Under the pieces are notes generated by a model. That model saw only the letters and a list, made by a program, of their open reading frames with translations. It had not been told where the DNA came from and searched no databases. A DNA stretch of 64,000 nucleotides. Origin: Candidatus Altimarinota bacterium. GTDB taxonomy: Bacteria > Patescibacteriota > Gracilibacteria > 1-14-2-50-48-13. A program made the translations under genes and the position numbers. The first letter of the stretch is position 1. Every line of letters starts with the position of its first letter. The stretch lies in the NCBI GenBank assembly GCA_046314355.1, contig JBKBWQ010000001.1, forward strand, positions 544,001 to 608,000, in the 5' to 3' direction. This document shows positions 1 to 62,401 of this stretch, piece after piece.

Positions 1-211
1 CAGATGTATCTTCTTTTTTAGGCTCCTTATTTAGTATAGAACTAGGGTGCTCTCCCAGAGATTTTGGCTCCGTATCCCTTGCTTGAGAATGTACAGCATT
101 ATCAAGATTACCAAGCTGGCTTCTCGTTTGTTCTGCAATCTTATCAGTACTTTCATGCTGACCCGCTGCATTCTCTAGATTTTCAGGTGTATAATTTTCA
201 TTCTCACCCAT
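1..211 (-). CDS. hypothetical protein, 5' part (runs off window start)
   Basis: ATG at 211, open to the edge (MGENENYTPENLENAAGQ...); TTGCTC-17-TATACT promoter upstream (267-239). Confidence 0.65.
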   Translation of the reverse strand, partial: MGENENYTPENLENAAGQHESTDKIAEQTRSQLGNLDNAVHSQARDTEPKSLGEHPSSILNKEPKKEDTS

Positions 212-11295: not shown

Positions 11296-11543
11296 AATGA
11301 CCTCCTGCTTTTAAATACATACATTAGTTTGATTTCAATGATCACTTCCGACAAAGTAATCAAAGGAATCTTTATTACTCTAATCTGAATACAACCAATA
11401 TAAGTGTTTTTCGTCAATGTACAAGAAAAAGAGACGCATAACTGCGTCTCTTTTTTTATATAACCTTTATAGTCAATATCTTCATGCTACGCTTATCCCT
11501 AATGCTTGAGTCAAACCTAGGATAAGGATGAGGATAGGGTTTT

Positions 11544-11843
11544 TTACATTCGGCATTCTTCAGCCTCTAATCCCTCCTCTTCATCAGACACATCCTTCCA
11601 TTCTCCATGCCATGCTGGCTGCAGAGGGAGAGTTGCTCTCGCCTTAGCAAGCGCCTCCTGCACATCTTCTGTCTCCGTTTCTAGGATATATTCTAAATAT
11701 TTGCGGAGTACTTCTTCAAAGGCCTCTAAGTTTCCTTCTTCATCTGTACAGTTTGAACAATAGATATTTTTAATATCGCCTGCTCCAAAATCAATATGCT
11801 CTTTCATTTCTCGTCCACAACTTTGACAAACTGGGAATTCCAT
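11544..11843 (-). CDS. putative zinc-ribbon protein
   Basis: CQSCG..YCSNC followed by a helical region ending LPLQPAW. Confidence 0.8.
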   Translation of the reverse strand: MEFPVCQSCGREMKEHIDFGAGDIKNIYCSNCTDEEGNLEAFEEVLRKYLEYILETETEDVQEALAKARATLPLQPAWHGEWKDVSDEEEGLEAEECRM

Positions 11844-11917
11844 ATGAAGGTAAGGGAAAGTGGAAATATATGGATCTAGTATACAGAGTATTATGTGTGC
11901 TGACTAGAGCAAAGAGA

Positions 11918-11995
11918 GTAATTGGGCTCATATCATTAGGCTTCAATGACTGAGCTCAATTATTGGAGCCTAATGATTGCGCCTTTAATTATCAA
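11918..11995. repeat. ATTGAGCTCAAT-type palindromic array, copy 2
   Basis: TCATTAGGCTTCAATGACTGAGCTCAATTATTGGAGCCTAATGA, near-perfect palindrome centred on GAGCTC. Confidence 0.9.
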
Positions 11996-29068: not shown

Positions 29069-30250
29069 TTACAACGCCGCTATCCCCGGCAGCGTCCCCT
29101 TCTCTACATACTCTATCATCGCTCCCCCAGCAGTAGAAACATGTGTAAATTCACTAAAATCAATACCTAGTTTCTTCAGTGCATCTACCGTATCACCCCC
29201 GCCAATAAGTGTCTGAGCATCTTTCCTTTTGGCGATAGCCTCAGCTATAAGCTTTGTAGCACCAGCAAATTTCTTTATCTCAAAATACCCAACAGGACCG
29301 TTCCAGATAATAGTCTTTGACTGATTAATTACATTTATAAACTGCTCAACTGTTTCCTTACCAATATCCAGGATCTTCATATTTCCTTCTATGCTATCTA
29401 CTTTCAAGTCAGCACAGAAAGCATTCTCATGTGCTTCATCACATACTATAGCATCTACGGGTATGAGTATTTTCTCTTTCTCTTTTTCAATAGCTAGCAT
29501 AGTCTCTTGTGCAAGTTCTACTTTATCTTTCTCAGATTTTGATAAACCAATATCATAACCACTTGCTTCAAGAAAGGTATTTGCAAGAGCTCCTCCTATA
29601 AGAAAATTATCACATTTCCCAATAAATCTCTTAATAAGTCCTGCCTTTGTATCAATCTTTGCTCCACCTAAGATCAGAGTCATGGGAGTTTTATTCTTAT
29701 CTATCACACTTTTTATTGCCTTTATTTCCTTTGCAAAAAGAAGCCCTATACAGGTTTCATTTACTAATTTTGGTATACCTACAATAGAAGCATGTGCACG
29801 ATGAGAGGCAGAGAAAGCTTCGTTTACATAGACATCAGCAAATTCTGCAAAAAACTTTGCGAAATCAGGATCGTTTTTTTCCTCCCCAGGAAAGAATCTT
29901 AGATTTTCAAAAAGTACAATTTGTCCTTCAGTTTTAGCATTTTCAATAGCAGCTTCTAATAGCTCAGGATCAGTATCTTCTACATACAGTACCTCTTTTT
30001 CCAATGACTTTTCAAGATAGTCCGCAATCGCATCAAGAGCATCCTCCTTCGTTCTCTTTCCTCCAGGTCGACCAAAATGTGTAATAATGACCGGAGTTCC
30101 TCCATGTTCAATAATATAGTTTATGGTTGGCAGACTCAAATCAATACGCGTACTATCAGCTACTTTTCCTTTTGACGTTAAAGACACATTAAAGTCCACA
30201 CGGATCAGTGCAACTTTATCCTTAAAATTAATTTGAGAGAGAGAGTTCAT
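29069..30250 (-). CDS. pgk: phosphoglycerate kinase
   Basis: RVDFNV, THFGRP, ENLRF, HRAHAS, WNGP, GGGDT, STAGGA. Confidence 0.98.
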   Translation of the reverse strand: MNSLSQINFKDKVALIRVDFNVSLTSKGKVADSTRIDLSLPTINYIIEHGGTPVIITHFGRPGGKRTKEDALDAIADYLEKSLEKEVLYVEDTDPELLEAAIENAKTEGQIVLFENLRFFPGEEKNDPDFAKFFAEFADVYVNEAFSASHRAHASIVGIPKLVNETCIGLLFAKEIKAIKSVIDKNKTPMTLILGGAKIDTKAGLIKRFIGKCDNFLIGGALANTFLEASGYDIGLSKSEKDKVELAQETMLAIEKEKEKILIPVDAIVCDEAHENAFCADLKVDSIEGNMKILDIGKETVEQFINVINQSKTIIWNGPVGYFEIKKFAGATKLIAEAIAKRKDAQTLIGGGDTVDALKKLGIDFSEFTHVSTAGGAMIEYVEKGTLPGIAAL

Positions 30251-30358
30251 GAAATTTTTGGCAGAAATAAACAGAAAAAGTATAACATAGCGTCTTTATA
30301 TAATCCAAGCATCTTTAAGAAAAGCCCTGATCCGCAGTCGCGGACAGGGTTTAACGGT

Positions 30359-30904
30359 TTATTGTAAATGCTGGTATATAGTAATTGTGTTTTTGTTCTT
30401 TTCAAAAATAAAACCTCCTTCGTCTTTAGGCAAGCTGTGATCTAAAAGTTCCCAGTAGTCTCTGATAACTGTAAGTGCGTATGCAATGATAATAATCATA
30501 GGTGCATAGACAATTGTTATGCTTTCGTTTCTACAGGTACTCAGATACTCATTTAAAGTATCTTTCACAACTCTACCGACTCGTTTGCATTGTAATACAT
30601 CTTTTTTAGAAAACTTCTCTGGAAACTCTGTGAATGTTTTCACTTCTGAAAGCAGTTCAATCATTCTACCACTTCCCACATTATCGTCTTCGATAAGTTT
30701 GGGAGATAGTTTTCTTTTATGAAAATAAAAGAATAATTGATCATCCACTTTCTCCGCAAATGAACTAGGATATAAAATAATTTGGACATCTTCAGGATGA
30801 AGATGTTTACTTTCATGATTTTTCCTATTCCAAAGAGCATCTAAGATCTTTTCAGAATCCTCACTACTTGTCTGTGGGCAAAAAAATACAAGAATCTTCG
30901 ACAT
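30359..30904 (-). CDS. hypothetical ORFan
   Basis: AGGAGG SD (30910-30915) before ATG 30904 (MSKILVFF). Confidence 0.7.
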   Translation of the reverse strand: MSKILVFFCPQTSSEDSEKILDALWNRKNHESKHLHPEDVQIILYPSSFAEKVDDQLFFYFHKRKLSPKLIEDDNVGSGRMIELLSEVKTFTEFPEKFSKKDVLQCKRVGRVVKDTLNEYLSTCRNESITIVYAPMIIIIAYALTVIRDYWELLDHSLPKDEGGFIFEKNKNTITIYQHLQ

Positions 30905-33202: not shown

Positions 33203-33750
33203 AAAAAAAGAACCCCATGCTTTGGTAAGCTCTGGGATTCTATTCATCTCATAGGCAAGAAAAATAGAATCTTTCCTTTGTGATGTGTGTTTTTGTTTGA
33301 GTGACAACTGCTCAAAAGTGTAATTCATGCTGTGCTTCGGTCATATACCTCTCCTAATGCCGAGGAGTGACTGATCCCTCGAAGGGATCTGAACCCCGCC
33401 TCGTCTCATATACGAAGTGGAAGAAAATCCAGGTGTAATGATCGGAAGCAAAGCTCGTCAGAATTAATGAGAAGAGGGATGTCATCTCCCTTCTCTTTTT
33501 CGCAAAGCAGTGAAAAATGAATATTCCTTAAATACTTAAGAACTACTCGTTACTCACTACTTACATCTTATTGTAAAGGATCAAATGTAGGACTCCGGCC
33601 GGAAGTCTTTTGCTTTCCTTACTTCTTGTAGGACTTCGCTCTCCGTGGCAGGAAGGAAATCTAAATGGTAAGAATTGCTTTTTTGTTTTTTAAAATTTGT
33701 TTTGGTTTAGTCTTCTTTTTGTTTTGTTTGAAGCTGTTGTATTTTTAAGC
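33203..33750 (-). ncRNA. candidate long structured RNA, locus A
   Basis: No ORF of 60 aa or more; many hairpins; promoter TTGCTT/TAAGAT (33786-33759); terminator 33203-33241. Confidence 0.45.
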
Positions 33751-33874
33751 TTCATAGGATCTTAATCTTTTTAAAAAATAAAGCAAGAAGAAGATGAGTG
33801 ACAAAGTATGTTTATTGTTTTAAAACATGATTATTTATTATAAAATGTATTTACTGTAAACAGATTACGTGAAA

Positions 33875-47757: not shown

Positions 47758-48192
47758 TTAGTCCTGTTTATCAGAGGTTTTAATCTTCTGAAAAATTGTA
47801 TTAAGAACGCCATTCACAAATTTTGAGCTTGTCTCACTGCCGTAGTTTTTTGCAAGCTCGACTGCCTCATTGATAGCAACAACCTCTGGTACTTCTTTAT
47901 TGAAAAGTATCTCAAAGATACCGATATATAAAATACATCGGTCTATGAGTGCAATTTTTTCCAATGGCCATTCAGGAGCAAAGTCTCTGATATGCTGTTC
48001 AATAGTTTCTAGATTTTTATCTATACCTTCCAATATTAGCTGTGTGAATTCCAGCTTCTTATCTTGATACTCATAAAAATGTCTATTGTTTTCTGTAAGA
48101 ACATCCAGCAAGGGCTTATTTCTTTCACGAAACTCCCACGTATAAAGAGTTTTGAGCGCAAATTCACGACCCACATGTCTATTAATCTTCAT
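47758..48192 (-). CDS. nusB: transcription antitermination factor NusB
   Basis: IDRCIL, VAINEAVELAK, FVNGVL. Confidence 0.97.
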   Translation of the reverse strand: MKINRHVGREFALKTLYTWEFRERNKPLLDVLTENNRHFYEYQDKKLEFTQLILEGIDKNLETIEQHIRDFAPEWPLEKIALIDRCILYIGIFEILFNKEVPEVVAINEAVELAKNYGSETSSKFVNGVLNTIFQKIKTSDKQD

Positions 48193-54291: not shown

Positions 54292-54993
54292 TTATTTTGC
54301 GCTTACCGCATCGCTGATATCTACACCGATTGCAGGTCCCATAGTAGTAGTCAATGAAAGAGTCTTCATATAAACACCCTTGATACCTGTTGGCTTAGCT
54401 GCGCTTACTGCCTTGATAAAGGCAATAACGTTCTCGAGAAGCTTCTCTTTTCCAAAAGAAACCTTTCCAAAACTTGCGTGGATAATACCGAATTTATCAG
54501 TCTTAAACTCAACTTTACCTGCCTGGAGCTCCTGGATTGTTTTAGCAATCTCGGTAGTAACTGTTCCAGACTTTGGATTTGGCATCATACCCTTTGGTCC
54601 AAGTACCTTAGCAACTTTTGCAAGGTCTCTCATCATATCAGGTGTTGCAATAGCAATATCGAATTCAAGAAATCCTTTATTGATCTCTTCGATCAAATCC
54701 TGATTTCCTGCTCTAACTGCTCCAGCTTTTGTAGCTTCTTCAATTTTATCATCACCAACGATGGCAACAACTCGAACCTTTTTACCAGTTCCATGAGGAA
54801 GTGCTACAGTGCTTCGTACAATCTGATCTGCATATTTAGGATCAGCATTCAAGTTGAAATGAATTTCAGATGAAGCATCAAATTTTACAGTAGAAGTCTC
54901 TGTAAGAAGCGCAATTGCTTCTGCAAGAGGATAGAGTTTCCCCTTCTCTACTTTTTTCTGTGCTTCAACATACTTTTTACCTCTTTTTTTCAT
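54292..54993 (-). CDS. rplA: 50S ribosomal protein L1
   Basis: LPHGTGK, LGPKGMMPNPKSGTVT, TTMGP. Confidence 0.99.
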   Translation of the reverse strand: MKKRGKKYVEAQKKVEKGKLYPLAEAIALLTETSTVKFDASSEIHFNLNADPKYADQIVRSTVALPHGTGKKVRVVAIVGDDKIEEATKAGAVRAGNQDLIEEINKGFLEFDIAIATPDMMRDLAKVAKVLGPKGMMPNPKSGTVTTEIAKTIQELQAGKVEFKTDKFGIIHASFGKVSFGKEKLLENVIAFIKAVSAAKPTGIKGVYMKTLSLTTTMGPAIGVDISDAVSAK

Positions 54994-55007
54994 AAGATTT
55001 GTAGTTT

Positions 55008-55037
55008 CGTGGTACGAGCGGCGGAAGGCCTCCCACG
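55008..55037 (-). promoter_or_regulatory. L1-binding leader before rplA
   Basis: CGTGGGAG...TACCACG. Confidence 0.75.
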
Positions 55038-55048
55038 TTAAATAAAAA

Positions 55049-55543
55049 TTACAATTTCTTTCTTAGCACAAAGAAATGGAGGATATATATAGGCAAGAAG
55101 ACGATAGTGAGTACCAAGGCAAGCAAGTTACTCTTTTCGAAATCAATGGCTTTCTGCTCTTCGATCTGTACTTTACGTGAATTCTTACAATTTTCAGTGA
55201 CACTTGTCTTTTCTTGAGGTGAAAGGGTTGCACCGCTTGCAGTCGTCATATCCTTTGAGGGACCATTTCCGTAAGCGTATGGATTGTATTCACAATCATT
55301 CAGCATATACATATATGAAGAATCAAGGGCCTTAGGAAAAAAATATCTACCGAGTATATTATATGCTCCTGTTGCAAGTCCTATAAGGAAAACTCCAAGA
55401 CTTAAAAGTGATACTACATAAATGTAGAGCCCTTTCAGTACATGCATTTTATCTTCCTTTATATGAACCATGGCAGCAGATATAAATATAATTATAATAA
55501 GAACTATAAGCAAAGCCATTCCGATTGAGAAAAGCCCTCCCAT
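55049..55543 (-). CDS. membrane protein inserted between rplK and rplA (DUF5671-like)
   Basis: LYIYVVSL, two Cys, LPIYILHF. Confidence 0.7.
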   Translation of the reverse strand: MGGLFSIGMALLIVLIIIIFISAAMVHIKEDKMHVLKGLYIYVVSLLSLGVFLIGLATGAYNILGRYFFPKALDSSYMYMLNDCEYNPYAYGNGPSKDMTTASGATLSPQEKTSVTENCKNSRKVQIEEQKAIDFEKSNLLALVLTIVFLPIYILHFFVLRKKL

Positions 55544-55544
55544 A

Positions 55545-55982
55545 TTATTCAGGCTGACCTGTAACAGTCACTCCCATACTTCTTGCAGTACCTGCAATGA
55601 TAAGAGCTCGCGCTTCATCATCATGGGCACTAAGATCAGAAGCTTTCTCCTGTCCAATTTCTTTACACTGATCCCAAGTGATAGTACCTACCTTTGTCTT
55701 GTTTGGTACACCTGATCCTTTTGGAATATTAATCTTCTGACAGATCAATACTGCCGCAGGAGGAGTCTTGAGGATAAATGAAAAAGTTCGGTCTTCATAG
55801 ATAGAAATCTCTACCGGAATAACCGTGTCTCCTTTCTCTCGAGTCTTGTCGTTAAACTGACTACAGAACTCTTGAATGTTGATACCTGTTGGTCCTAGGG
55901 CAGTACCCACCGGAGGTGCAGGGTTGGCCTTTCCAGCTTTAAGCTGAATCTTGACCATTTTCGTGACCTTTTTAGCAGCCAT
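55545..55982 (-). CDS. rplK: 50S ribosomal protein L11
   Basis: [29 protein letters not shown]. Confidence 0.99.
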
Positions 55983-55998
55983 AGAAAATAGATGTTAT

Positions 55999-56035
55999 GT
56001 GGTTCAAGCAATCCGCAATGATACGAATCTCCCAC
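55999..56035 (-). promoter_or_regulatory. L1-binding leader before rplK
   Basis: GTGGGAG...ACCAC. Confidence 0.75.
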
Positions 56036-56047
56036 TAATAAAGTATA

Positions 56048-56830
56048 TTATAACGATCGGAAAAACTCATTAAAGTCCTCTTTTAGGCTAGATACTACGT
56101 CCACTGCGTAGTTAGCTCCTGTTTTGGACTCTACTACTATACGCAATAATTCTGGTTTATCAATATTATTATAATAAAACCCTCTTCTGCCAAATGCAGC
56201 ATCGGAGACCGTTATCTTTGGATTTTGAAGTACTCTTTGTGCTAGATCTCTCAAGAATAAGTTTACATTTCTTATAGTAGGGTCGACTTTCTTGATCTCA
56301 TAGAGAAATCCTACCTGATTACCATTTTTCTGCAGAATATATCTTTCTACTTTTACTGCTGTAGCATATGGGGTCAATGTTTCATAAAGTCTATTCTCTT
56401 TATATTCTGTCTTCACTACCAGATAATTTTTTCCTAATGTTGTCTGAGCGTATGCCTGCAAAGAAGCCTGTGAGACTGGATTTGTCGTTGTACCATTATT
56501 AGTACTTGTGGGAACTACAGCATTTGCATTTTGATTAGCTACCATGGCAGCATTCTGATTTGCCTGCGGTTTTGTAGTATTTAAATTTTCCTGTACTGGG
56601 ATGCTAGTTACAACATTTTGATTAACAACAGCAGGAACTATGTTTTCATTTACTGGCACCTGTAGGGCTACATTCTCATTTCTTGTACTTTCTTCACCGC
56701 CAAAAGCCAACTGAATTGCAGCTGGCTTTTCTTTATGTAGGCTCAAATATATTCCTCCAGATATGATACAGAGAAAAAATAACACAATTGTGAGTACTTC
56801 TCTAGCTAGACTTCCGGAGCGTGAAGACAT
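56048..56830 (-). CDS. membrane-anchored protein with Asn/Thr-rich linker
   Basis: N-terminal TM, NQN repeats; lies between nusG and rplK. Confidence 0.8.
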   Translation of the reverse strand: MSSRSGSLAREVLTIVLFFLCIISGGIYLSLHKEKPAAIQLAFGGEESTRNENVALQVPVNENIVPAVVNQNVVTSIPVQENLNTTKPQANQNAAMVANQNANAVVPTSTNNGTTTNPVSQASLQAYAQTTLGKNYLVVKTEYKENRLYETLTPYATAVKVERYILQKNGNQVGFLYEIKKVDPTIRNVNLFLRDLAQRVLQNPKITVSDAAFGRRGFYYNNIDKPELLRIVVESKTGANYAVDVVSSLKEDFNEFFRSL

Positions 56831-56846
56831 ATGAAACGGCTTAAAA

Positions 56847-57392
56847 TTATTTCTTCTTTATCTGCGTAAAATCAAGTTCTACTGGTGTTTCTCTTCCGAA
56901 CATACTTACAAGTACCTCAACTTTACCCTTATTATCATCAATTTCACTAATCGTTCCTTCATATGTATTAAATGGTCCTTCTGTAATAATAACCATTTCA
57001 CCCATCTCAAAGTCAATTTTGAATGAATTATCCTTATCTCCCATTCGTCTCTTGATCATCTTGAATTCTTCAAGAGACACAGGAACTGGAATATTTCCAG
57101 AACCTACGAATCCAGTAACATTTGGAGTGTTTCGTACAACATACCAAGATTCATCAGTTACATTCATTTCCACAAGTACGTATCCTGGAAAAATTCTTTT
57201 TTTCTCAGATTTTTTTTCTCCTTTTTTAATCACGATCTGTGTCTCCTCAGGGACAACTACATCGAAAATAAAATCCTGCATATTGTAAGTCTCGATTCTT
57301 TGTCTGATCGCTCTTTCTACAGCGTATTCGTATCCTGCGTAAGTATGTATCGCATACCAGTTGCGTCCTGTATTTTGTAATTGCTTAGCCAC
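56847..57392 (-). CDS. nusG: transcription termination/antitermination factor NusG
   Basis: WYAIHTYAGYE, FPGYVLV, TPNVTGFVG, KOW motif, FGRETPVEL. Confidence 0.99.
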   Translation of the reverse strand: MAKQLQNTGRNWYAIHTYAGYEYAVERAIRQRIETYNMQDFIFDVVVPEETQIVIKKGEKKSEKKRIFPGYVLVEMNVTDESWYVVRNTPNVTGFVGSGNIPVPVSLEEFKMIKRRMGDKDNSFKIDFEMGEMVIITEGPFNTYEGTISEIDDNKGKVEVLVSMFGRETPVELDFTQIKKK

Positions 57393-57421
57393 TTTTTTAA
57401 ATGGGTAGGTATATAAAAGAC

Positions 57422-57736
57422 CTAGTTACTAGGTGTAGTAGTCGGTGTCGTAGTCGGAGTGATCTCTACATTAGATGTCCCTTCTCCTGTTGCCGTAGTC
57501 TGTACGTCTGTAGGAAGAATCGGAGTAGTGTTCTGTGTAGTTGGAAGTGAGTTTGAAGCTGGAAGAGCGCTATAGATTGACTTCATTCCATAGTCTACAA
57601 GAGTAGCTATTGCTGAGAAGATCAAAACAAAGACAACTACATTCACAGTATGCTTGATAAGCTCATCTGTTTTTGGCCATGAAACTTTGCGTATTTCACT
57701 CCAAGAATCTTTAAAGAACTGAATTAGTGTACCCAC
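57422..57736 (-). CDS. secE: preprotein translocase SecE with Thr/Pro-rich tail
   Basis: EIRKVSWP plus TM; upstream of nusG. Confidence 0.93.
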   Translation of the reverse strand: MGTLIQFFKDSWSEIRKVSWPKTDELIKHTVNVVVFVLIFSAIATLVDYGMKSIYSALPASNSLPTTQNTTPILPTDVQTTATGEGTSNVEITPTTTPTTTPSN

Positions 57737-59698: not shown

Positions 59699-60109
59699 AA
59701 ATATGGGTAGTGAATAATTAATTAATATTAACTACATTTTTTGATCAAAGGCAAAGAATTCTGGTATTTTCTAAAATCTCTGTTTAAAGCCCTAAGAGCC
59801 AAGGTCCGATGCCTATATTTACAAAGTGTTTACTAAAGCCAAGTTTTAATAGTACTTTCTCTAGGTTTAGAGATTCGTATCTGTTTCTTACAGCTTATAT
59901 CCAGTAATATTGACATTTTTATATAGAAGTATATAAGTCTTTAGTTCTTTGAAATCTAGAAATTGCAGTAAGTTTTGAATGGTTCTTTGAAAGGTGTAGA
60001 GATACGACTTTAAGAAGGAATGTTCATGCCCTTGCTGCAATGAAAAGCAGTATAGTACTTATTATTATATTAAAATTTGCCAGATCGAACTGGAGAAAGA
60101 AGGAAAAGT

Positions 60110-60763
60110 ATGAGTAATTTGAAGAAAGTCATCGTTACAACTATTGGTTTGGGAATTGTTTTTATTGGCGGTTGTACACAGCCACCAATTACTGCTAAGC
60201 AAGCTACTAGTGAAATCTCTTCACAGAAAAGCACAGATAAACCAAAGGAAGGAGGCATAATTGTCAGCTTTCCTTTCGAGAAATTTCAAAAGGAATATGA
60301 TAAAAAAATAGCAGAGGATGAGGTTGAGAGAGAGAAAAAGGCAAAGTCTAATGGAGATAAGATAGTTTTTATGATGAGTCCTGATTCTGCAAAGAATACT
60401 ACCATTATAAAAATTAAGAATGTTGGCGACGAGAATGTGTATTTAGAGGATGTTACATTCCTTTTTTATGCAGAAAAAACCACATTTTTAAAAAAAATTG
60501 AAATTCTTGATAAAGAAAAGATAGTTCTGGCATACGAAAATATTGCATTAGGTGAGAAAGGAACTCTAATAGAAATGCGTCCACACCATCTCATCCCAAA
60601 AGATGAGGTAAAGGAACTTACTCTTAGATATACAAGAAACAGCGATAGTGATACTGAAGTGATTGTGCTCTACCAGTCTGACTATTCAGTTATCGGTAAT
60701 AGCACTGGAATACTTTCACGTAAAAAAGAAAGTGAATACATATATGTAGGTAATTCACTATAA
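60110..60763 (+). CDS. hypothetical lipoprotein
   Basis: MSNLKK..IGGC lipobox; long leader with two GTTCTTTGAAA sites. Confidence 0.75.
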   Translation: MSNLKKVIVTTIGLGIVFIGGCTQPPITAKQATSEISSQKSTDKPKEGGIIVSFPFEKFQKEYDKKIAEDEVEREKKAKSNGDKIVFMMSPDSAKNTTIIKIKNVGDENVYLEDVTFLFYAEKTTFLKKIEILDKEKIVLAYENIALGEKGTLIEMRPHHLIPKDEVKELTLRYTRNSDSDTEVIVLYQSDYSVIGNSTGILSRKKESEYIYVGNSL

Positions 60764-60839
60764 AAATTGACCGCAAGGGTATTACAAACTGGCCATAATT
60801 AATTTTATGGTCTTTTTCTCTATTCCTCCCTAAACACAT

Positions 60840-61305
60840 AAAAGTCGCCATTTGGTAATGGCGAACTTTTTATTTTTGTTTCGTTTGGAGTGCGAGTTTT
60901 GGCGCCCCAAGAAACGTATAGAAGTCGACGGAACCTCTCTGTTGTAGATCTCAACCTTACTTCGGTAATACAATGTCCCGCATCCCAAGGGTCGCTATAG
61001 CGAGATTTGATGAGCCGATTTTAGACTTGCTCCAAAGAGGAAGACCAGCCGCACCGCATCTCAGCAGTGGTGGAGGAGCAATTGGGAGTCACCCAAACGT
61101 CCAGTTTCATAAAGTAGAGACAAATGAGAGCAAGATGGAATCCCTACGGGAGAGAGCCTACATCTCTGGCTCAGAAAGTTTAGTGCCTCTCAGTGAACCT
61201 TGGTAGATTATGAGTGGTACGCTTCCGTGAGACACGATGAGATGAATAGGCCATCTATCTTTCATTTATCCCTGCTTGTGTTGTTAAAGATCTTTTTTGT
61301 TTTGA
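60840..61305 (-). ncRNA. candidate long structured RNA, locus B
   Basis: GC-richer than flanks, many hairpins; TTGATT-17-TAAGAT promoter; boxA-like GATCTTTAACAA; terminator 60840-60870. Confidence 0.45.
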
Positions 61306-61387
61306 TTTTCATAGTATCTTAATCGATTTAAATAAATTAATCAAATAAGAATCATTTACACATACTGAAATTTATTTTAAAAGAACA

Positions 61388-62401
61388 TCAGCCTGCATTT
61401 TCCCAAATACTGCGCATGCGAATACTACGCTTAAAATCTCTTTCAAAAAGCTGTTCCTTCACGGTATTTACAATTTGCATGTCGTTTGTACCTAGATTGA
61501 ATTCTTTGTTTCGTTTCATGCTTCTATATGTTGCATTTGCAGAACCAAGAGAAACATATTCATTATCAATCAGATATACCTTTAAGTGATTGAGTGTTTT
61601 TCCATAAATAAATATATCTATATCAAAATATCTCATCCACTTCACAGTAACAGCATGCTGAAGCCTAGTAATAAGATGATTACTAACCTTTGGGACTATG
61701 ACTTTCACATCTATCCCTCGTTTTTTAGCATCGATCAGTGCCCTTATCAGCCTTATATCAGTAATATACGGTACTTCGATAAAAATGTTTTTCTTTGCGG
61801 ACCTAATCCGCTTATTGAGATCTTCTTCAATGTCGTTTTGCTTAAAATCAGTCACGAGCATGTCATAATGATTATTCCCCCATTCGAGTTTATATGAAGA
61901 AACCTCGCCATCCACCCACTCGGCGAGAAAAATACGTTCAAATCCAGCAGCAATGAGAGGTTCTCGTATATGAATAAAAATATCATGCCATTCAAATTGG
62001 TAATGGTCCCCGATATTCATTCCTCCAGTAAATGCTTCCTTTGAGTCTATTACAATAATCTTTCTATGATCAAGCTGGAAGTGGAAAGGATTTGGTTCTC
62101 CCGCATGTACGATCTGCACTCCTTGAGTTTTCAAAAAACGCAGCAGCGCCATTCGTCCAGTGATTGCTCTCCAGTTGAATAAGGAAAAGTAATATGTACC
62201 AATTTGATCATACATTACCTTCACATCTAAACCTTCTCTTGCCTTTTTTGCGAGAATCAAAGCCATATCCCATCCAGTCTTGTCATCAGCAAAGATAAAC
62301 ATTTCAATATAAATAGAATGCTCTGCCTGCTCCAGCCGTTCAAAAAGGGTCCTGAATGCAGAAATGCCGTCCACCAAAAGCGTAAAATGTACAGGAAGCA
62401 T
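61388..62401 (-). CDS. phospholipase D / cardiolipin synthase-like (no N-terminal TM)
   Basis: Two HKD motifs, HRKIIVID and HLKVYLID; GGMNIG, GSAN. Confidence 0.92.
   Translation of the reverse strand: MLPVHFTLLVDGISAFRTLFERLEQAEHSIYIEMFIFADDKTGWDMALILAKKAREGLDVKVMYDQIGTYYFSLFNWRAITGRMALLRFLKTQGVQIVHAGEPNPFHFQLDHRKIIVIDSKEAFTGGMNIGDHYQFEWHDIFIHIREPLIAAGFERIFLAEWVDGEVSSYKLEWGNNHYDMLVTDFKQNDIEEDLNKRIRSAKKNIFIEVPYITDIRLIRALIDAKKRGIDVKVIVPKVSNHLITRLQHAVTVKWMRYFDIDIFIYGKTLNHLKVYLIDNEYVSLGSANATYRSMKRNKEFNLGTNDMQIVNTVKEQLFERDFKRSIRMRSIWENAG

Follow-up and report, generated by a model that had tools for sequence, protein, structure and literature searches.

Introduction

Large RNAs with many helices are rare in bacteria, and those of known function are central ones, found in the ribosome, RNase P, tmRNA, the signal recognition particle (SRP) and the group I and II introns. 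Beside these stand OLE, ROOL, GOLLD and raiA, which are large, lineage-restricted structured bacterial non-coding RNAs (ncRNAs) represented in Rfam 15; for OLE RNA an envelope-type role has been proposed in other bacteria. To our knowledge, almost no non-coding RNA biology is known for the candidate phyla radiation (CPR). The present analysis concerns a stretch of 64,000 nt (the window) from Candidatus Altimarinota bacterium, contig JBKBWQ010000001.1, and in particular a candidate RNA gene near its end, referred to as locus B. A preliminary description of the window, made from the letters alone, had proposed an untranslated structured RNA at this site, led by a boxA-like antitermination word and related to a second site, locus A.

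Locus B is very probably a real structured ncRNA gene of a new family. The fuller reading, to which a probability of roughly 0.6 is assigned, is that of an independent gene for a structured ncRNA of ~470 nt, belonging to an uncatalogued family that occurs in a few taxonomic families of one Peribacteria/Gracilibacteria-like class. Like OLE, ROOL, GOLLD and raiA, the predicted RNA is several hundred nucleotides long, with many conserved helices, conserved unpaired nucleotides and a promoter and terminator of its own; likewise its range is narrow, it is G+C-rich in an A+T-rich genome and its function is not evident from the context. Unlike these RNAs, locus B matches no Rfam family in sequence or structure, its hosts are small-genome Peribacteria/Gracilibacteria-like bacteria with two diverged paralogs per genome, and no associated protein genes are found near its copies. 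In size (~400 nt) and G+C enrichment it is similar to RNase P RNA and tmRNA, both of which are present elsewhere in the genome. Large bacterial RNAs of unknown function are already familiar as a category, and the newness of locus B lies at the level of the family only.

Organization of locus B

On the minus strand, window positions 60840-61344 have the layout of a self-contained gene: a promoter-like site comes first, then a leader in which a boxA-like 12-mer lies near +20, and after it a 5′ domain that varies between copies, a conserved core of ~290 nt and an intrinsic terminator. The preliminary description had noted that some 400 nt after the boxA-like word are richer in G+C than the flanks, and this island in fact extends over ~440 nt, with a G+C content of 0.50-0.515 over 60900-61199 compared with 0.30-0.345 in both flanks. 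The 471-nt sequence of locus B folds at -140.9 kcal/mol (z = -4.73) and beats 100 of 100 dinucleotide shuffles.

The conservation of this fold is evident from covariation among the eight copies that constitute the family, which come from five genomes in three taxonomic families of one class. Alignment of four copies with MAFFT and RNAalifold yields a consensus fold of 11 helices and 74 base pairs, 26 of which carry compensatory changes. In alignments fitted to the structure of a covariance model, a procedure that favours that same structure and to this extent weakens the argument, 37 of the 74 pairs change on both sides for six copies (93.2% of cells paired) and 47 of the 74 for eight copies (92% of cells paired). 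Sliding the partner strands of the 8-copy alignment by 1-3 columns leaves 39.5-45% of the cells paired, and not one of 500 shuffles reaches any of the 8-copy covariation measures. From the eight divergent copies MAFFT and RNAalifold recover helix P1 and two short helices, and nothing more; in the MAFFT-based alignments P1 shows exchanges of A-U to G-C and of U-A to G-C or G-U. The features of locus B, in the order of transcription, and the related locus A are listed below.

61339-61344, minus strand: -35-like hexamer TTGATT, read in the sequence, with a 17-nt spacer to the -10-like hexamer
61316-61321, minus strand: -10-like hexamer TAAGAT, followed by AC, read in the sequence
After the promoter, minus strand: A-rich 5′ start AUGAAAAUCAAAACAAAAAA; A-rich CAAAACAAAAAA; read in the sequence
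61281-61292, minus strand: boxA-like word GATCTTTAACAA in the A-rich leader, exact match in the sequence
61122-61267, minus strand: variable 5′ domain (domain I), with a closing helix of 61267-61251 with 61138-61122
61108-61119, minus strand: 5′ strand of P1, CUCUACUUUAUG, which closes the core junction; partner 60960-60950
61075-61102, minus strand: P2 hairpin (helices 2 and 3), with a conserved UGAC in the loop
60994-61065, minus strand: P3, a long irregular hairpin (helices 4-6)
60962-60993, minus strand: junction GACCC, P4 hairpin (helix 7) with loop GGGACAUU, and the end ACCGA
60950-60960, minus strand: 3′ strand of P1, GUAAGGUUGAG; partner 61119-61108
60920-60938, minus strand: P5 hairpin (helix 8), loop with GUCG (GUCA in most copies)
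60877-60915, minus strand: P6 hairpin (helices 9 and 10), outer stem GUUUC...GAAAC
60840-60876, minus strand: A-rich linker, terminator hairpin with an ACCA loop (60864-60845) and U run (60843-60840), from the terminator scan
33210-33790, minus strand: locus A, paralogous copy, with the core at 33210-33522 and the promoter near 33790; match to the covariance model at 34.7 bits

Consensus structure

The core is a multi-helix junction, closed by the long-range helix P1 and enclosing P2, P3 and P4, after which follow P5, P6 and the terminator. Among the eight copies, four of the ten pairs of P1 change on both sides and 97.5% of its cells are paired. Two-sided changes are also found in 6 of the 8 pairs of P2, the UGAC loop of which is read in six copies, in 13 of the 14 pairs of helix 5 of P3, in all six pairs of P5 and in 7 of the 13 pairs of P6. 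P4 and its flanks form the most conserved stretch of the family (4 of 9 pairs of helix 7 changed on both sides), with a loop that reads GGGAYAU across the family and the flanking words GACCC and ACCGAAG. An A/C-rich linker connects P6 to the terminator, helix 11, where 5 of 8 pairs change on both sides and the loop-proximal CAUU-ACCN-AAUG is fixed. The loop word of the terminator is carried by 19 hairpins of the genome, of which only that of locus B is followed by a T run; the conserved loop is thus a feature of the family rather than a general feature of terminators. The closing helix of domain I pairs at 14 of 17 positions (read by eye) and has a similar counterpart in one relative; in two other copies the domain is short or replaced.

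The hairpins listed in the preliminary description fare differently. TTGGG/CCCAA corresponds to P2 and shows covariation, and both sides of TCCC/GGGA change to CCCC/GGGG in one relative, as read by eye from two sequences. GAGCC/GGCTC falls in the variable domain. TTGCTCC/GGAGCAA and the palindrome TCGCTATAGCGA are not kept in the relatives and conflict with the consensus fold.

Promoter, terminator and boundaries

The hexamers TTGATT and TAAGAT, separated by 17 nt as described earlier, are present at 61344-61339 and 61321-61316, and so are CAAAACAAAAAA and the boxA-like word (61292-61281), the latter as an exact match. Upstream of this genome's 16S rRNA gene, TTGACT and TAAGATAC stand 17 nt apart, the -10 hexamer and following two bases being identical to those of locus B; in locus A the promoter consists of TTGCTT, a 17-nt spacer and TAAGATCC. 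From these signals, transcription of locus B is predicted to start near 61310, from a promoter of the 16S rRNA promoter type. In this genome ~158 kb separate the 16S gene (G000:C1:1206759-1208242) from the 23S gene (C1:1366156-1369178), and each of the two has a separate promoter-like site. Downstream of the 16S gene, reading by eye shows a hairpin and T run, with apparent coding sequence beyond.

At the 3′ end, the terminator scan reports a stem of 8 bp with four G-C pairs and the 4-nt ACCA loop, followed by CUUUU, that is, the G+C-rich stem-loop and U run of an intrinsic terminator. The hairpin at 60864-60845 and its U run had been identified correctly before; the loop then given for it, TTACCAAA, includes two closing U-A pairs, and the loop proper is ACCA. 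T runs flank the hairpin 60845-60864 on both strands, so that it could also end transcripts of the convergent plus-strand gene 60077-60763, for which a further terminator-like site is found at 60791-60812.

The boundaries of the gene can be compared with a ~94% identical relative in the DNA sequencing runs X3 and X4, which resembles the window over 60837-61360 only; beyond 61360, ~15 nt upstream of the -35 hexamer, the resemblance ends. One of the two runs is from soil and the other from a biofilm, with different years of origin, and both contain the same ~94% variant, with identical differences.

Family members and distribution

A covariance model of the core, R1 (~290 nt, 287 positions), was built from four close copies, and the distribution figures rest on this model; strict filters were used with it for samples of 150 genomes. 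In three of the four genomes of the order, R1 finds four full-length copies at 256-301 bits. Weaker full-length matches occur in two other families of the class, in genomes G017 (34 bits) and G015 (24.4 bits), among 151 genomes sampled. A second copy in G017 scores 18.5 bits with R1 and is 74% identical to the first over 376 nt (BLAST). The weak matches in G144 and G119, also of the class, align to the 3′ hairpins only and are not counted as members. BLAST searches of 41 related genomes give matches in two genera, both of them sisters within the same family; one has two copies 3.65 kb apart. A single 26-nt low-complexity match was discounted. A BLAST search with the G017 copy finds nothing further in 401 genomes of the class.

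The kinship between loci A and B that had been suggested earlier is borne out by R1: with filters off, all 287 model positions are matched at 33210-33522 on the minus strand, and because the core of locus A matches the locus B model, at 34.7 bits, the two loci are paralogs. They are 75.7% identical over 70 nt of promoter and first bases and have the terminator loop UUACCAAA in common; the leader of locus A is ~270 nt long. With locus A, BLAST gives no match in the three other genomes of the order. Two diverged copies are present in three of the five carrier genomes, here as loci A and B. In G002 the two copies (G002:C3:26453-26742 and 30103-30388) are on the same strand, 3.65 kb apart, with a gene for a DUF2339 membrane protein between them and two P-type ATPase genes flanking.

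R1 was also run against control sequences. The genome that contains the window (G000) has 19 other regions that are rich in G+C and poor in open reading frames (ORFs), for example G000:C1 1344643-1345391, 1395576-1396254 and 34711-35248 and window 11296-11995. They have a 200-nt peak G+C of 0.47-0.61 (genome mean 0.38) and at least 250 nt without an ORF of at least 110 residues and without a tRNA. None of these regions (15.6 kb, filters off) matches R1 at E <= 0.01 and none matches Rfam; they may hold small protein genes or other RNAs. Among 80 viral loci (94 kb, default filters), scored out of at least 120 matches to a pattern that proved too loose, R1 has no match at E <= 0.01. A pattern scan of a genome collection yields 24 stretches; three were scored and all three match R1, in records titled Candidatus Gracilibacteria bacterium and uncultured Candidatus Peribacteria bacterium, the 21 others, from unrelated phyla, being outside the scored set. 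Of three stretches from a metagenome pattern scan, one scores identically to a known copy and nothing is found beyond it; the other two lie in coding sequence and do not match R1. A descriptor search for further paralogs gave 16 matches, mostly noise, missed locus A and was abandoned.

Comparison with known RNAs and coding potential

The sequence was compared with the 4227 models of Rfam 15 at gathering thresholds. Over the window only three tRNAs are found, none of them in 60840-61345, and the seven homologous loci give only two nearby tRNAs. A scan of 901 nt (60600-61500) at E <= 10 yields six matches, all far below gathering, the best with E = 1.6 and the highest score being 21.2 bits against a gathering score of 102.3. 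RNase P RNA, tmRNA and known large ncRNAs, which had to be set aside before the locus could be considered new, are accordingly no candidates: the locus has no match to them at gathering, and the genome's own RNase P RNA (RF00010; G000:C1:1260698-1261138, 149 bits) and tmRNA (RF00023; C1:790733-791154, 105.3 bits) lie elsewhere, both above gathering. On these comparisons the locus B family is rated as a new RNA family that shows no detectable kinship with known families. The literature, within a scope that omits most subscription journals, yielded no account of such an RNA, so that an earlier description is possible; a recent preprint devoted to the non-coding sequence space of prokaryotes, examined for the names of five lineages, likewise has nothing on it.

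The minus strand of locus B contains short ORFs only, as previously stated, and the plus strand an ORF of 77 residues at 60973-61206. Conserved homologs of this ORF, which would have pointed to a protein gene, were not found: it has no Pfam match, in one relative a stop interrupts the 43-residue match once 16 residues have passed, and in two others tblastn finds nothing at E <= 10; this check consisted of Pfam and tblastn in relatives, large protein databases being outside its scope. Among the eight copies the longest ORF differs in frame, strand and position, and no ORF is shared in any frame. Covariation, the lack of a conserved frame and the lack of an Rfam match are all in agreement with the untranslated structured RNA that was originally proposed.

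The boxA-like word

The boxA-like word of locus B differs at one position from the canonical 12-mer, and nowhere else in the 64 kb does a site come within one mismatch of that 12-mer. Within the 45-nt leader, 0 of 3000 shuffles match as well. Over the whole window the 12-mer shows no enrichment (17 sites with at most two mismatches, 14.45 expected). All eight copies carry a boxA-like word upstream of their core, with individual significance in locus B only, and the aligned leaders of three orthologous copies contain related words. The 16S and 23S leaders of the genome contain GGACCTTTGATA-like and GATTTTTGAAA-like words. In PMC3177189 and PMC4807359, NusB-NusE is described as recognizing boxA and the Nus factors as acting on rRNA; boxA/Nus antitermination is reported there also for other untranslated or special transcripts. 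NusB (107 bits) is encoded inside the window and NusG is also encoded, these two being the proteins covered by the search. The nusB gene is found at window 47794-48168 and a secE-nusG-ribosomal protein cluster at 54292-57736, in the same window as both RNA copies.

Locus B is similar to an rRNA-operon leader in having a boxA-like word (one mismatch) early in an untranslated transcript, a -10 hexamer in common with the 16S promoter, and NusB and NusG encoded in the genome; it is dissimilar in that its word differs from the genome's own rrn words, no boxB/boxC context is recognized and no Rho is found. The antitermination that the preliminary description attached to the word is therefore only plausible. 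The word is significant in locus B, and the following points speak against a function in antitermination. In seven of the eight leaders, those of the other copies, the best word has 3-4 mismatches with shuffle p values of 0.06-0.48 each, and the p value for all leaders combined, 2.6e-4, owes its size mainly to locus B and takes no account of how the copies are related. The locus B word differs from the 16S and 23S words of its own genome (8 of 12 positions in common with the 16S word), and the rrn words of two relatives differ again, without co-variation with the ncRNA leaders. Finally, no Rho RNA-binding domain (PF07497) is found in G000, which is rated 98% complete, and the case for an untranslated RNA being in need of antitermination is thereby less compelling. 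An action of the boxA-like word through Nus factors, as judged from the sequence, is plausible but rather doubtful; should Nus factors indeed be loaded, their role is more likely to lie in helping a long structured transcript to elongate and fold than in shielding it from Rho.

Genomic context and transcription

In three genera the RNA gene is located 0.4-3 kb upstream of secE-nusG-rplK, on the same strand, with differing genes between. In G017 it lies between a giant gene of S-layer type and ftsW-murG. No neighbouring protein is common to the copies. The genes beside the copies encode SecE, FtsA-like, FtsW/MurG, P-type ATPase, ABC exporter, cardiolipin-synthase-like PLD and S-layer-type proteins.

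A word search finds parts of the locus B sequence in 20 sequencing runs of 15 studies, six of the runs being RNA runs; contigs were compared with this sequence for four runs (X3, X4, X15 and X17). The metatranscriptomes X15 and X17, from two studies, provide four and five contigs of 151-263 nt, which lie on 60878-61109, in the core, with ~85-93% identity. Several of these contigs share 60949-60996 only and then diverge into family-like sequence, with a GUUUCAAAC-type stretch in the loose ends. The contigs give a hint, suggestive only, that the RNA is transcribed and that many relatives have yet to be collected.

Complementarity of locus B to pre-23S rRNA amounts to 12 exact matches of at least 9 nt, against 5.0 in mononucleotide shuffles; the matches are mostly A-rich or palindromic words and no claim is drawn from them. 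Pre-16S rRNA, RNase P RNA and tmRNA were also compared.

Discussion

The reading of locus B as an independent ncRNA gene has several observations to contend with. A consensus promoter scan makes no call at the promoter, where 8 of 12 hexamer positions match, and the pattern TTGNNN-16..18-TAAGAT[AC]C occurs at 13 sites of the genome, so that it is not specific to stable RNA genes. The covariation is derived from only eight sequences of five genomes, which are mutually related. The contigs from X15 and X17 stem from relatives, carry no information on strand, ends or level, and may reflect carry-over of DNA into the RNA libraries. No member of the family is found in one of the four genomes of the order (81% complete). 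The same holds for 144 of the 151 genomes sampled from the class and, under strict filters, for a further 150 from the phylum. With this patchy distribution, the locus B RNA cannot be a universal housekeeping RNA.

A model for the RNA can nevertheless be proposed. Transcription would proceed from the rRNA-type promoter, with its start near 61310, to the intrinsic terminator. At the boxA-like word in the A-rich leader, RNA polymerase would acquire NusB/NusE, together with NusG, much as it does on rRNA operons, and this loading would help the polymerase to complete and fold the long untranslated transcript. The mature RNA would be stable and abundant, would act in trans, and might, like OLE, serve one or more proteins as a folded scaffold, in which the conserved unpaired words (GACCC, GGGAYAU, ACCGAAG, the UGAC and GUCA loops and the ACCN loop) would be contact sites or sites of tertiary interaction. 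The branched fold as modelled, with its many invariant unpaired nucleotides, would fit a protein scaffold, a ribozyme or self-assembling RNA, or a guide-type RNA. Among these and base-pairing regulators, a trans-acting protein scaffold is tentatively preferred, with odds that stay somewhat short of even.

An unlikely alternative, modelled on ROOL or GOLLD, is a large ribozyme or a structural RNA that self-assembles. The multi-helix junction and the strongly conserved unpaired nucleotides agree with it, as does the complementarity of the P2 and P5 loops in six copies, by which a UGAC-GUCA kissing contact might build a compact or multimeric fold. This contact between P2 and P5 is conceivable from the loop sequences; against it, the loops are invariant in the six copies and do not vary together, and pairing is not evident in the two G017 copies. 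Moreover, the sequence suggests no cleavage site, substrate or partner, and no Rfam ribozyme family matches.

Locus B could also encode an RNA that serves a mobile or RNA-guided system as guide or scaffold, of the type of the IscB/TnpB omega RNA or the IS110 bridge RNA, in which the conserved 3′ scaffold would bind a protein encoded elsewhere and the variable 5′ part would give specificity. The succession of a variable leader and domain I and a conserved 3′ core, the two diverged copies in each of three genomes, and the neighbouring genes that differ between genera are all compatible with this quite improbable explanation. On the other hand, Pfam finds no nuclease, transposase or recombinase domain in the 25 neighbour proteins at five of the eight copies (locus B, both copies in G002, the G001 copy and the first copy in G017; the scan left out locus A, the second G017 copy and the G015 copy), and there is no Rfam match to HEARO or other guide families. 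The place upstream of secE-nusG, kept in three genera, looks like vertical inheritance, and none of the 80 viral loci scored, out of at least 120 pattern matches, matches the model.

That locus B is a very divergent 6S RNA or SRP RNA missed by the Rfam models is considered very unlikely. Both of these RNAs are stable, small and strongly promoted, and since both are undetected in the genome their replacement by the locus B RNA is conceivable: neither 6S RNA (RF00013) nor small or large SRP RNA (RF00169, RF01854) has a match in G000, and the promoter of locus B resembles an rRNA promoter. In contrast, the 901-nt scan at E <= 10 gives no match to either type of model, and the fold and length are different, with a branched junction, a free A-rich 5′ end and a 3′ end at a terminator in place of the 6S rod or the SRP helix 8 hairpin. 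The SRP proteins are also undetected, as the Ffh M domain (PF02978) is not found in G000, and PF00448, the GTPase domain of SRP54 type, is below the family cut-off in nine of nine genomes of the class. Loss of SRP subunits has been reported for a relative and for many CPR bacteria (PMC8080830). With SRP proteins undetected in all nine class genomes and the RNA confined to three families of the class, the RNA cannot represent a general replacement of SRP RNA.

Similarly slim is the chance that locus B is a cis-acting part of a neighbouring mRNA, either the 3′ untranslated region of the PLD-like gene 61388-62401 or a leader or riboswitch. The PLD-like gene is located 44 nt upstream on the same strand, and no terminator is found between. 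However, the upstream genes differ per genus (FtsA-like; P-type ATPase and DUF2339; S-layer-type protein), a promoter-like site and a terminator belong to locus B itself, the gene that follows downstream is convergent, and in the ~94% identical relative the resemblance ends 15 nt upstream of the -35 hexamer. Least probable is a protein gene, be it the 77-residue plus-strand ORF or a small minus-strand ORF from the conserved 5′ AUGAA: such ORFs exist, and the first bases AUGAARAUCAAAAC, conserved in three copies, could be the start of a leaderless ORF, but the 5′ ORFs (by eye) have 16, 15, 81, 11, 21 and 2 codons and are unrelated after the first five residues, the 77-residue ORF is not kept in relatives, the substitutions follow base pairing, and the indels are not multiples of three.

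The locus B RNA, read as the product of an independent gene, could conceivably be the first member of a new class of large, abundant RNAs of Peribacteria-like CPR bacteria that are transcribed like rRNA, forming a ribonucleoprotein at the cell envelope that would serve the handling of membrane proteins or envelope homeostasis. This proposal, which draws on the envelope genes next to the copies, on the lack of detectable SRP in the lineage and on the analogy with OLE RNA, is speculative and improbable as it stands. What can be said is that the hosts of locus B are bacteria without detectable SRP, Rho and 6S RNA, and that earlier new classes of large structured RNA each led toward new biochemistry. 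With a defined gene, a consensus of 11 helices, eight examples and a working covariance model, the RNA is directly testable.

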